A stretch of 64,000 nt of DNA from Dictyostelium discoideum (lineage: Eukaryota). Below are positions 4,891 to 17,428 of the stretch, piece by piece; within the stretch, counting starts at the first letter, position 1, and the number at the start of each line of letters is the position of its first letter. The position numbers and the translations under genes were made by a program. The stretch is taken from NCBI GenBank assembly GCA_000004695.1, contig CM000153.2:3456001-3520000 (forward strand). Reading direction: 5' to 3'. The notes under the pieces were generated by a model, which saw only the letters and a list, made by a program, of their open reading frames with translations, was not told the origin of the DNA and did not search any database.

Positions 4891-4994
4891 TTTTTTTTTT
4901 TTTTTTTTTTTTTTTTTTTTTTTTTTTTTTTTTTTTTTTTTTTTTTTTTTTTTTTTTTTTTTTTTTTTTTTTTTTTTTTTTTTTTTTTTTTTTT
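4891..4994. repeat. Uninterrupted poly(dT) tract of about 104 nt
   Basis: This is a homopolymer run. On the minus strand it is a poly(A) run that begins inside the TAA stop codon of gene 4993..6417. Confidence 0.9.
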
Positions 4995-6417
4995 ACAAGT
5001 TATCATAAACAACTTGTCCATCAATACTAATTCTACATGAATCACAATAGTTAAAATTTGTAGTATTTAATGTAGAATAGAATGGGATACTATTGAATTC
5101 AAAGATTGAATTAATTCCAGCAAATGGAATATCTGAAAAAACACCTGATTCTGCTATATTATTATATGAATTTTGGGTGATTAAACCAATTGGGAAAGTA
5201 TTTGGGATTTCAAAACCATAAATAGATGTATTACCATTTTGATTACATATAAATGATTTATTACCAAAAACTTGAACATTTTCAGAATTGATGGTTGAAA
5301 TACTTAAAGTGTATTCAGCATTTTGGTAATTTTGGAAAGAGAAGAATGAATTGGTTGGATCATCATTATTTGAGGTAATAATGTTGTTTGATAATTGAAA
5401 TAAAGAGATATGTGGAATTGCAGATTCTCTTGGAGCATTGATTTGATTATTTTCATGTTGTAAAAATTTTGAGAAAATGCAATTTGAGATTCTTACACCA
5501 GTGTAATAAAAATTATCACCAACATTCAAAGTTTTTACAAATGGATGACCATTATTGATAACGACATTATCAATTAAACTTGTTGCCTTTAAATTGAAGA
5601 GACCAATACTTGAGTAAATAAATGGTGATGAGTTTAATATGGAATTAAGGAAACGAGAGCCTATAATAGCTACATTGGCACCATTAAAGTTGAATGGTGG
5701 TAAAGTTAATGATGAATCGATGTTATTAAAATAGCCACCGCTGCATTGAAAAGCTACAGACCCATATTCAAAGTTTGTGCCTTTTGGTTGAATGTTGATA
5801 ATACTGTTGGAAAACCATGTGTATACTGTTGTGAAGAAAATGGATTGCTTGGTGAGGCTATTGAATACTTGATTTAAATTGGTGTATACGATTGTTTGGT
5901 TACCCCAATTTTTAAATTCAATATTTCTAATTCTTAATGTTTTTCCAGAACTACATTGGTATGATGTGTTTGGAACATTTGGTTCTTGGAGACTGACAAA
6001 GTGAGATGTTGATAAAGTTCCATCTACAATTGCACGTGATGTAGTGGTTGCAATTAAAATATCGACAGTACAAAATCCAAAAAGGTTTCCAAGTTGAGCT
6101 GATTCACCGTCAATGTTTGGTGTAATTGCAGTATTAATAACACTGATGGTGAGGTAGTTACTATTTGGAATTGCAAGTCCACTGTTGAGATATTGTCTGG
6201 CTCTATTGCCTGCGTCTTTAAAACTTTTACATGGTGGGTAGATTGTGGTATTGCTACTATCCAAAATACCACCACACTCACTATTGACATATGGTGTTGA
6301 GGAACCGAAATCAACTATCAAAGTAATGGCTGTGGAAAGTGTTTGAGAAGCTACATTTTGGATACACAAAAATAGACTAATTGCAAAGAAGGAAACTAAT
6401 AAAAAATTGGTTTTCAT
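4993..6417 (-). CDS. L-family secreted glycoprotein, subtype B (no TM), 474 aa
   Basis: This is an intact ORF with a signal peptide (MKTNFLLVSFFAISLFLCIQNVASQ). Motifs present are SECGG...YPPCKSFKDAGNRA, LGNLFGFC, FKNWGNQT, and C-terminal C-D-S-C. Its first two thirds are near-identical to the inverted copy at 15998..17428. Confidence 0.7.
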   Translation of the reverse strand: MKTNFLLVSFFAISLFLCIQNVASQTLSTAITLIVDFGSSTPYVNSECGGILDSSNTTIYPPCKSFKDAGNRARQYLNSGLAIPNSNYLTISVINTAITPNIDGESAQLGNLFGFCTVDILIATTTSRAIVDGTLSTSHFVSLQEPNVPNTSYQCSSGKTLRIRNIEFKNWGNQTIVYTNLNQVFNSLTKQSIFFTTVYTWFSNSIINIQPKGTNFEYGSVAFQCSGGYFNNIDSSLTLPPFNFNGANVAIIGSRFLNSILNSSPFIYSSIGLFNLKATSLIDNVVINNGHPFVKTLNVGDNFYYTGVRISNCIFSKFLQHENNQINAPRESAIPHISLFQLSNNIITSNNDDPTNSFFSFQNYQNAEYTLSISTINSENVQVFGNKSFICNQNGNTSIYGFEIPNTFPIGLITQNSYNNIAESGVFSDIPFAGINSIFEFNSIPFYSTLNTTNFNYCDSCRISIDGQVVYDNL

Positions 6418-14119: not shown

Positions 14120-15997
14120 ATGTAAAAAATATATATAATCCAATAGCGTAATCTTTTATTTTATTTTTTTTTTATCGAAATTTAATCAACCAAAAAAAAA
14201 AAAAAAAAAAAAAAAAAATAATTAAAAAAAAAAAAAAAATAATAATAATAAAATAAATAAATAAAACAAAAAAAAAAGAAAAATAATAAAGACCAATCTT
14301 TTTTTTTTAATTTTTTAAATTTTTGATGTGTTTTGGTTGAGGTTTTTTTTTTTTTTTTATTTTCATATCTGATTTTCATTTCCAGGGGGTTTTTTTTTTT
14401 TTTAATTTTTTGAGTTTTGGTGTAATTTTAGAAATTTTATTATAAAAAAAAAAATTTCTTTGCAGGATGTGCACAAAAACCTGCATTTTAAAACTAAAAA
14501 AAAAACCATTTGCGAGATATTTTTTTATTAAAAAAAAAAAAAAAATATCTTATATTTGTTTTATATTTTTTTTTTTTTAATATATTTTTTTTTTTTTTTT
14601 TATAATATATTTTTTTTTTCTCCCCTTAAAAATAATCCTAAAGAACAATGATCATTTGAAAACAAAATCTATTTATTTTTTTTTAAAAAAAAAAAAATAG
14701 AAAAAAAAAAGGTCCAATTACACCACACACATAAGTGGTAGGATCAGCAAACTCATGGGCCACAAACTTTTAAACCCTTATTACTTGTATACACTTCCTA
14801 TTTACATAGCGCAACTCTATAGATTTTATTGGATTGATTAGATAGCGGGTTCAACCTCATCAGTTTACAGATCATATCACTAAGCGCCAAGGTATTTTTT
14901 TAAAAAAATTTACATATCAAAAAAAAAAAAAAAAAAAAAAAAAAAAAAAAAAAAAAAAATATATTAATAATTAAAATAAATATTCCGAATCAAAACAATA
15001 TTTTTTTTTTTTAGTCAATTAATTTTGATAGGCCATAATTTGGTTTTTGTATTGTTTATTCTTTTTTTTTTTTTCCTTTTTCCTTTTAAATTTTTTTTTA
15101 TATTTTCGCATATCCTCGGTCGTTCAAGGCACTCCTCCAATTCCAAGAATATATATTTTTTTTTTTTTTTTTTTTTAATTTGCTTGTTGGGTTGGTTTTT
15201 ATGGTGTTTTTTTTTTTTTTAATTATTTGAACAAATATCAACCGAAAATTTACCCTTTTTTTTTTTTATAATAAATTTTAAAAGAAAAAAAAAAATATTT
15301 TCCTTTGCAGGATATGCACAAAAATATTCATTACAATTAATACGATGATGGAAAGTAATTTTGTAAATTTGAAGAGTTTAAAGTTATAATAAAAAACCTA
15401 ATTGGTGTATGCTTTCTAACTCTCCTTTTTTTTATTTTTTTTTTTTTTTTATTTTTTTTTTTTTTATAATGGGTTTTTTTTTCTTGGCCATCGAAAACAT
15501 ATCTATTTATTTATTTTTAAAGATACCCCAATAATTTTTCTTGCGTAACGAGTATTATTTTTAAAAAAAAATTTTTTTTTAAATTTTTTATATGTATATT
15601 TATATAAATATTTATATATATATTTTTTTTTTTTTTTTTTTTTTTTTTTTTTTTTTTTTTTTTTTTTTTTTTTATGGAATTTTTTTTCTTAAGAGCAAAT
15701 ATAGCAAAAAAGAAAAAAGACGTTATTAATTATTAATACCAATGCGGATTGAGTTCTCGGTGATTTTGAAAATATCTTCAATCAAGTGACTTTTTTTTTT
15801 TTTTAAATTTTTAAAATTTTAATGTATTTTTTGAATAAAAACAAAAAACTTTTTTTTTTTTAATTGTTGTCGTTCTCACACTTCAATAAACTGATATTGT
15901 TGTACAACAATTTACAATTTTATTTATTTTTTTAAAAAAAAAAAAAAAAAAAAAAAATTTCCAACCAAAAAAAAATAAAAAAATAAAAAAAAAAAAA

Positions 15998-17428
15998 ATG
16001 AAAAATAATGTTTTTTTTTCAATTTTATTTTTAACCATCAGTTTTTTGATTTGTGTTCCAAATGCAACATCTCAAACACTTTCAACAGCCATCACATTGA
16101 AAGTTGATTTCGGTTCTATAACACCATATGTCAATAGTGAGTGTGGTGGCATTTTGGATAGTAGCGATACCACAATCTATCCACCATGTAAAAGTTTTAA
16201 AGACGCAGGCAATAGAGCCAGACAATATCTCAACAGTGGACTTGCAATTCCAAATAGTAACTACCTCACCATCAGTGTTATTAATACTGCAATTACACCA
16301 AACATTGACGGTGAATCAGCTCAACTTGGAAACCTTTTTGGATTTTGTACTGTCGATATTTTAATTGCCACCACCACATCACGTGCAATTGTAGATGGAA
16401 CTTTATCAACATCTCACTTTGTCAGTCTCCAAGAACCAAATGTTCCAAACACATCATACCAATGTAGTTCTGGAAAAACATTAAGAATTAGAAATATTGA
16501 ATTTAAAAATTGGGGTAACCAAACAATCGTATACACCAATTTAAATCAAGTTTTCAATAGCCTCACCAAGCAATCCATTTTCTTCGCAACAGTATACACA
16601 TGGTTTTCCAACAGTATTATCAACGTTCAACCAAAAGGCACAAACTTTGAATATGGATCTGTAGCTTTTCAATGCAGTATTTGCTATTTTAATAACATCA
16701 ATTCATCATTAACTTTACCACCATTCAACTTTAATGGTGCCAATGTAGTTATTATAGGCTCTCGTTTCCTTAATTCCATATTAAACTCATCACCATTTAT
16801 TTACTCAAATATCGGTCTCTTCAATTTAAAGGCAACAAGTTTAATTGATAATGTCGTTATCAATAATGGTCATCCATTTGTAAAAACTTTGAATGTTGGC
16901 GATAATTTTTACTACACTGGCGTTACAGTCTCCAATTGCCAATTCTCAAAATTTATACAACACGAAAATAACAAAATCAATGCTCCAAGAGAATCTGCAA
17001 TTCTACATATCTCAACTATGTATTTAATTAATAACATTATCACCTCAAACTACAATGATCCAACAAATTCATTTTTTTCATTCCAAAATTTCATTGGTGC
17101 GTCTTATACCTTGGATTTTAATACTATATCTTCATCAGGTAACATCGTTCTCGGTCAAAACAAATCTTTTATTTCTAATCAAAATTCAAATTCCACGAGC
17201 TCTTTCTCAGAACCTCCAAGTGATTTCCAAATAGGGTTTAACACTGAAAATTCACACACTGATATATTATATTCAAGCGTTTTATCAACCATTCCTTTTG
17301 TTGGATCCAATTCAATCTTTACTTTCTCCTCCTCTGGTGATTGTATTATCGCAAACACTGCAAATTATAACCATTGTGGTACCTGTCAAATTATAGTTGA
17401 TTCTGATATAAAATATGATAATCTATAA
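15998..17428 (+). CDS. L-family secreted glycoprotein, subtype B, 476 aa (inverted duplicate of 4993..6417)
   Basis: This is an intact ORF with signal peptide. Residues of about 25-330 are roughly 95% identical to the 4993..6417 product. The last third is only about 50% identical. Confidence 0.7.
   Translation: MKNNVFFSILFLTISFLICVPNATSQTLSTAITLKVDFGSITPYVNSECGGILDSSDTTIYPPCKSFKDAGNRARQYLNSGLAIPNSNYLTISVINTAITPNIDGESAQLGNLFGFCTVDILIATTTSRAIVDGTLSTSHFVSLQEPNVPNTSYQCSSGKTLRIRNIEFKNWGNQTIVYTNLNQVFNSLTKQSIFFATVYTWFSNSIINVQPKGTNFEYGSVAFQCSICYFNNINSSLTLPPFNFNGANVVIIGSRFLNSILNSSPFIYSNIGLFNLKATSLIDNVVINNGHPFVKTLNVGDNFYYTGVTVSNCQFSKFIQHENNKINAPRESAILHISTMYLINNIITSNYNDPTNSFFSFQNFIGASYTLDFNTISSSGNIVLGQNKSFISNQNSNSTSSFSEPPSDFQIGFNTENSHTDILYSSVLSTIPFVGSNSIFTFSSSGDCIIANTANYNHCGTCQIIVDSDIKYDNL

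Follow-up and report, generated by a model that had tools for sequence, protein, structure and literature searches.

How can two genes lie inverted on either side of a spacer of almost 10 kb, be nearly identical over most of their coding sequence (CDS) and yet share only about half of their residues in the last third? The question is raised by a pair of paralogues, here called copy A and copy B, found in a stretch of 64,000 nucleotides of Dictyostelium discoideum AX4 (GenBank assembly GCA_000004695.1, contig CM000153.2, positions 3,456,001 to 3,520,000; G+C ~22%). This whole stretch is referred to as the window and all coordinates without further mention are those of the window. Both open reading frames (ORFs) had been reported by a first-pass annotation made from the sequence alone; both exist at the positions it gave and each matches an AX4 protein exactly.

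4993..6417, minus strand: copy A (DDB_G0285769 / Q54MY1 / XP_638162), intronless ORF of 474 aa, predicted secreted beta-helix protein
15998..17428, plus strand: copy B (Q54MX7 / XP_638166), intronless ORF of 476 aa, inverted head-to-head relative to A
6418..15997: unique spacer between the 5' ends of A and B, 9.58 kb, with three plus-strand genes
8173..9387, plus strand: spacer gene 1, DnaJ-like
10393..12270, plus strand: spacer gene 2, a 625-aa distant paralogue of A and B
13352..14119, plus strand: spacer gene 3, 255 aa

Comparison of the two copies with their counterparts in related genomes argues that A and B are ancient inverted duplicates whose central coding sequence has been repeatedly homogenised, lineage by lineage, by non-allelic and non-crossover gene conversion, an explanation to which we give a probability of roughly 0.93. 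The homogenised core comprises codons ~36-310 (~825 bp), with older edges reaching to CDS nt 73-1016; its homogenisation was independent and recent in each lineage, and either copy has served as donor. Promoter and signal peptide at the 5' end, like the C-terminal third, have never been exchanged and evolve as ordinary orthologues under the same purifying selection, with a ratio of nonsynonymous to synonymous divergence (dN/dS) of ~0.3.

Divergence along the AX4 pair

Amino acid identity between A and B amounts to 96.4% over residues 36-310 and to 54% over the last 145 residues, the two proteins being 2 aa apart in length; this agrees with the first-pass description of a half-identical end of unequal length. 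Over residues 1-330, for which ~95% had been announced, identity is indeed high but was measured at 91%. The signal peptide, encoded by the first ~30 codons, is only 52% identical in amino acids and 72% in nucleotides. The 5' conversion-like tract of the first-pass annotation is therefore real but internal, since signal peptide and promoter are also excluded from it. Its statement that the flanks are unrelated was borne out by blastn, which found only poly-A/T low-complexity matches beyond ~66 nt upstream of the ATG.

Nucleotide alignment in windows of 50-60 nt gave 97-100% identity from about CDS nt 103 to 900, then an intermediate zone and then ~55-65%. Divergence is thus not uniform along the genes, and the breakpoints could be located: in a two-breakpoint maximum chi-square analysis the tract covers CDS nt 73..1016, and the copies differ at 4.1% of positions within it and at 37.9% elsewhere (chi-square 276-286; 100 permutations reached at most 18). 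The homogenised share makes up no more than ~58-66% of the CDS. Three parts can be told apart, codons 1-35 being diverged (proportion of synonymous differences, pS, ~0.5), codons 36-310 near-identical and codons 346 to the end saturated. The segments concerned are the following.

5491..6315, minus strand: conversion core of A, A codons 35-309; always homogenised in the discoideum clade (dS 0.06, polymorphism and quartet counts)
16103..16927, plus strand: conversion core of B, B codons 36-310, on the same basis
5405..6348, minus strand: maximum chi-square tract of A, A CDS nt 70..1013; takes in older edges that are partly eroded
16070..17013, plus strand: maximum chi-square tract of B, B CDS nt 73..1016
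6316..6417, minus strand: type-specific 5' end of A, signal peptide, codons 1-34; pS 0.51 against B, A-type kept across species, never converted
15998..16102, plus strand: type-specific 5' end of B, signal peptide, codons 1-35; from pS, trees and fixed differences
4993..5385, minus strand: type-specific C-terminal third of A, A codons 345-474 and stop; dS ~1.3 against B, groups with A orthologues (97-99% bootstrap)
17033..17428, plus strand: type-specific C-terminal third of B, B codons 346-476 and stop; from dS, pS, trees, fixed differences and quartets
5386..5490, minus strand: 3' edge zone of A, A codons 310-344; escaped conversion in discoideum, still converted in citrinum
16928..17032, plus strand: 3' edge zone of B, B codons 311-345; falls on residues 324-337, which form a long loop of the predicted beta-helix

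Synonymous divergence (dS, Nei-Gojobori) between the AX4 copies rises from 0.06 in the core to 0.82 in the signal peptide and 1.32 in the C-terminal third. In parallel, dN/dS is 0.30-0.38 in all three. Equal dN/dS together with a dS of 0.06 in one part and ~1.3 in another means that the segments differ in age and not in selective regime. The comparison of dN/dS between segments, which had also been suggested at the first pass, hence speaks against the rapidly diverging C-terminal third that it offered as an alternative to conversion, an alternative that is refuted: the difference lies entirely in dS.

An old duplication with a young core

The age of the duplication was assessed with A-type and B-type proteins taken from five discoideum or cf. 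discoideum genomes, D. citrinum, D. dimigraforme and D. firmibasis, and with locus DNA from six other genomes (cfFIZ, FIW, citU, citV, dimigraforme and firmibasis; seven with AX4). All six carry A on the minus strand, the DnaJ-like gene, a ~600-aa paralogue, the 255-aa gene and B on the plus strand, in the order and orientation found in AX4. Since A-type and B-type copies are laid out in this way in all these species, the duplication took place before D. firmibasis, D. dimigraforme, D. citrinum and D. discoideum split.

In the C-terminal third, amino acid identity is 57-78% between A orthologues and between B orthologues, and about 50% between A and B in every combination; pS is likewise 0.24-0.43 between orthologues and 0.5-0.7 between A and B in every combination. 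The core shows the reverse. Identity of A to B within a genome reaches 96-98% in discoideum, with 91% in citrinum, and between genomes the figure is 91-94% for AX4-like against cf. discoideum sequences and 76-78% for discoideum against citrinum. At silent sites of the core, the two copies of a single genome (AX4, cfFIZ, citU, citV) differ by a pS of 0.00-0.06, compared with 0.06-0.20 between orthologues across strains and ~0.4 across species.

Trees of the segments are discordant. In bootstrapped neighbour-joining trees of the core, A is paired with B by genome in five lineages (97-100%), and in those of the C-terminal third and of the signal peptide the A and B clades are separate (99%). Quartet sites, counted as grouping the four sequences by genome or by type, give the same picture. 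Between AX4 and cfFIZ the core has counts by genome and by type of 39/4, the signal peptide of 0/16 and the C-terminal third of 0/97; between AX4 and citrinum the core stands at 121/0 and the C-terminal third at 6/70. Maximum chi-square values of 276 in AX4, 265 in cfFIZ, 268 in citrinum and 72 in dimigraforme stand against permutation maxima of 15-18, the tract being significant in every lineage.

Homologue searches and a profile search found no third close paralogue in D. discoideum that could act as a donor. The profile search, made with the family alignment, added one window paralogue and nothing more, and the other family members in the window are ~28% identical to A and likewise to B. 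With no third close copy, the exchange partners of A and B in this species are each other only. The A/B family was found in Dictyostelium-group species only in the searches run, which do not establish its wider distribution.

Some local differences between genomes were also observed. In D. firmibasis (CM069766.1; L006/L007) the A/B subfamily includes a third copy, RB653_000646 (P0009), which is about equidistant from both types and ~48% identical in the C-terminal third. An acidic 327-aa gene is inserted there between copy A and the spacer genes; it was considered as a truncated A duplicate and this was ruled out, the sequence being unrelated. The firmibasis copy A is annotated 16 codons too short at its start; with an ATG that lies upstream in frame, it regains a signal peptide of A-type. 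In D. cf. discoideum GCA_054859235.1 (L001), the A-to-B spacer is ~1 kb shorter than in AX4, the 388-aa DnaJ-like/mitochondrial-carrier-like gene that lies downstream of copy A (window 3087..4253) has no homologue, and the spacer gene paralogous to it (window 8173..9387) is present as fragments only, annotated as a 99-aa product. The regions of L001 compared with window 3087..4253 and 8173..9387 were 7894..8468 and 11426..12546. Finally, a DDE transposase gene (PF01609 / PF13359) was found in D. dimigraforme at L004 19163..20626, ~8 kb downstream of copy B; no such gene is present at the corresponding place of the AX4 window.

Exchange in both directions

Polymorphism within the discoideum clade bears directly on whether exchange between the copies has continued. 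Among five genomes, the core has 22 shared polymorphisms, at which a strain carries the same allele in A and in B, and one fixed difference, at residue 311. The same genomes have no shared polymorphism in the C-terminal third (28 fixed differences) and none in the signal peptide (6 fixed differences). In the same way, two D. citrinum strains have strain-specific states that are common to each strain's own A and B.

The direction of exchange can be read from 19 core sites that are type-specific in dimigraforme and firmibasis. At these sites the discoideum and citrinum copies interleave A-type (9-11) and B-type (7-9) states, a mosaic that indicates many short tracts copied in both directions and not a single overwrite. 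The first-pass suggestion of a recent gene conversion over the conserved region is thus strongly supported as regards conversion; it is repeated conversion, ongoing in several lineages on an ancient duplication, and not one recent event.

As to the molecular route, homologous double-strand break repair without crossover would be the most likely source of these tracts, either by synthesis-dependent strand annealing or by short-patch heteroduplex repair. The template would be the inverted paralogue on the same chromatid or on the sister chromatid.

Several points weigh against the conversion explanation or limit its reach. Conversion is deduced from comparative sequence only and no event was directly observed. 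The C-terminal dS is saturated, which makes ~1.3 a rough value only. The full-length citrinum comparison sets an A and a B from different strains side by side, and partial sequences from a same strain agree with it (pS 0.00-0.04). The core of dimigraforme and firmibasis is already 19-28% diverged, so that conversion there is old or has stopped. GC content at third codon positions (GC3) is 0.25-0.27 in the discoideum core and 0.18-0.22 in that of dimigraforme and firmibasis, and the C-terminal third of B also reaches ~0.25; the GC3 of the tract is therefore only slightly raised, with the B C-terminal third as high, and no clear signature of GC-biased conversion is seen. The last point concerns the tract boundaries, for which a passive limit of homology and selection may both be invoked, each being compatible with the data.

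Boundaries of the converted tract

The edges of the tract recur in independent lineages, at nt 55-105 on the 5' side and at nt 1001-1093 on the 3' side. The 3' edge is graded and lies at nt 1016 in discoideum and at nt 1093 in citrinum. Over codons 311-345, pS between A and B is 0.38-0.40 in discoideum and 0.09 in citrinum, and quartet sites in this edge zone (by genome/by type) are 1/13 for AX4-cfFIZ and 14/0 for AX4-citrinum. These codons have been homogenised in citrinum and have escaped in discoideum, which implies that the 3' edge erodes at lineage-specific rates.

Flank divergence of ~35-40% probably leaves too little homology to start or extend a heteroduplex, and this would be enough to keep the boundaries stable. 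Selection for two distinct C-terminal modules and promoters may reinforce them. A stronger version of the latter idea holds that the boundaries are actively kept by selection, conversions into the C-terminal third or into the promoter and signal peptide being removed because the copies have diverged in function or expression. This would make the ends an "island of divergence" in a homogenised pair, and it would refine the conversion explanation and not replace it. In its favour, independent lineages have long had their boundaries at nearly the same positions, purifying selection acts on both ends, which are type-specific in all four species, and the predicted fold is one continuous beta-helix, so that a domain border would not force the 3' boundary. 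On the other side, the graded and lineage-dependent 3' edge is what passive erosion of homology predicts, and flanks that are 35-40% diverged suffice on their own to block recombination. We regard active maintenance as possible, with the odds somewhat against it.

A further step along this line would be a two-module design held by selection, in which continual conversion prevents the shared beta-helix scaffold from diverging between the genes and each gene has its own promoter, signal peptide and C-terminal coils. The recurrent boundaries in four species would then be selected islands of divergence and not just the result of passive homology loss. This proposal is tentative and we think it rather unlikely as it stands. 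If true, new scaffold variants could spread to both genes, and the C-terminal coils would carry the ligand or partner specificity of each paralogue.

Inversion, constraint or recent duplication

Three further explanations were weighed. In the first, the inverted repeats would serve as a recombination switch that flips the 9.6-kb spacer through crossovers in the core and thereby swaps promoters and signal peptides between the C-terminal modules. An inverted repeat of ~825 bp, 96-100% identical and 9.6 kb apart, is a competent substrate for inversion, and an inversion polymorphism between the copies had been envisaged in the first-pass annotation. None was found when it was looked for in the six other genomes, and the seven genomes at DNA level, AX4 included, are all collinear. 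A crossover in the core would moreover yield chimeric genes, for instance with a B signal peptide and an A C-terminus. No such chimera occurs in these seven genomes or among ten discoideum-clade proteins, all ten of which keep the A signal peptide with the A C-terminus and B with B. A switch of this kind is very improbable.

The second explanation does without conversion, and supposes a single duplication, after which the core has been under much stronger purifying selection and the C-terminal third, with selection on it relaxed or positive, has evolved fast. Protein-level identities of 96% and 54%, taken alone, would fit such a conserved domain with a variable tail. However, silent sites show the same contrast (dS 0.06 vs 1.32) with an equal dN/dS of ~0.3. 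The C-terminal third is also about as conserved between discoideum and citrinum orthologues (74% aa) as the core (76-78%), and constraint cannot yield the 121/0 core quartet sites at which A and B share their state within a genome. Refuted by the silent sites and the quartets, this account is scarcely credible.

It is just as hard to believe in recent independent core duplications in each lineage, or in one recent duplication followed by end replacement (a domain swap from another paralogue): a within-genome core dS of 0.00-0.06 does resemble that of very young duplicates, and real young segmental duplicates exist in the window (22.4-28.4 kb and 30.7-36.3 kb), but the same head-to-head layout with the same three genes and with type-specific signal peptides and C-terminal thirds is found in all species examined, no other paralogue resembles either C-terminal third (~28% for other window members, ~48% to both for the firmibasis third copy), and a true young duplicate keeps homology through intergenic DNA, which A and B do not. 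The segmental duplication at 22.4-36.3 kb, with its intergenic homology retained, serves here as an internal control for recent duplication, from which A and B differ in that their homology stops inside the CDS. Homology running through non-coding flanks, as in palindrome-type arms or a young inverted segmental duplication, was not found for the pair, whose homology ends inside the CDS on both sides.

Predicted fold and annotation

The predicted fold of A and B matches in three dimensions solved right-handed parallel beta-helix (pectin-lyase-like) proteins. The proteins compared include GH110/GH87 glycosidases, polysaccharide lyases, alginate epimerases, phage tailspikes and the adhesins PfbA and Vag8, at a sequence identity of 6-14%. 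Neither A, B nor the third copy of firmibasis had a Pfam family at E <= 0.01 or a relevant hit at E <= 10. Two public names are unsupported. Copy B is called "agglutinin domain-containing protein" and has no Pfam agglutinin match at E <= 10, its predicted fold being a beta-helix and not a beta-trefoil. The "carbohydrate binding domain" in the name of the firmibasis third copy is in the same way without Pfam support at E <= 10.

The surrounding gene cluster

The window (1..64000) is a dense cluster with about eleven paralogues of one secreted or membrane-anchored family that has no Pfam entry. Family members in the window share an N-terminal Cys motif (C49..C64, DAGNRA), and most of those other than A and B have, besides a C-terminal hydrophobic anchor, a stalk rich in Thr/Ser. 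Interleaved with this family is a second one, whose proteins are ~250 aa long.

501, 4993, 10393, 15998, 19963, 22635, 26506, 30954, 34502, 37674, 48616: family ORFs in the window
18787, 24410, 32592, 40907, 47514: ORFs of the second family

Long alternate-frame or antisense ORFs inside real genes, at 11796..12275 (minus strand; a Val-rich antisense reading of the Thr-rich stalk) and at 6054..6314 (minus strand), are by-products of biased composition and not genes.

The segmental duplication is direct (tandem), spans ~6 kb (22405..28395 vs 30718..36296) and runs through intergenic DNA with 86-94% identity. It contains 470/473-aa and 616/585-aa family members together with a 266-aa gene, and its patches of 100% identity could be conversion tracts. 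Within it, the 470-aa subfamily (22635..24047 and 30954..32375, plus strand) and the 616-aa subfamily (26506..28356 and 34502..36259, minus strand) are mutually inverted. Nucleotide identity between them is 72-86% over the first ~540 nt of the CDS and ~50% over the rest in all four pairings, which could reflect stronger constraint on the N-terminal region or a partial conversion tract of greater age.

Significance and comparison with known systems

Literature searches, by gene identifier and for gene conversion in Dictyostelium, turned up no work on this locus, and the paper behind the comparison genomes covers the tgr locus only. The A/B pair is a well-resolved new case of a known process, partial concerted evolution, and does not reveal a new mechanism. 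It is an unusually clean natural case, in which both boundaries, strain-level shared polymorphism, bidirectional mosaic tracts and outgroup data from four species are available together. The host is haploid and genetically tractable, which makes conversion rates, tract lengths and dependence on repair genes directly measurable. The pair also calls for caution, as orthology and dating in Dictyostelium multigene families, as well as strain-level calling of single-nucleotide polymorphisms, are misled unless the segments are analysed separately.

When interlocus gene conversion stops at a sharp boundary, duplicated genes evolve in concert only in part; the textbook case is that of the human fetal globin genes HBG1/HBG2. 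As in that pair, an old duplication is near-identical within a genome in one part and diverged in the rest, the trees of the segments are discordant and conversion has recurred in separate lineages. Unlike HBG1/HBG2, A and B are inverted head-to-head and not in tandem, their tract is bounded on both sides inside an intronless CDS, and the host is a haploid amoeba.

Inverted pairs under concerted evolution are also known, for example Drosophila Hsp70Aa/Ab (head-to-head) and human RHD/RHCE (opposite orientation). These share with A and B the layout of inverted paralogues a few kb apart, non-crossover conversion that leaves the spacer uninverted, and gene parts that escape and stay paralogue-specific. 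In Hsp70, however, the whole coding region and some flank are homogenised, whereas in A and B this concerns only ~58-66% of the CDS, the ends having been distinct since before the four-species split. Divergence-island models for converting duplicates, reportedly those of Walsh (1987), Innan (2003) and Teshima and Innan (2004), predict the picture that A and B present: a homogenised region, polymorphism shared between paralogues, and lasting diverged segments that have either escaped conversion or been protected by selection.

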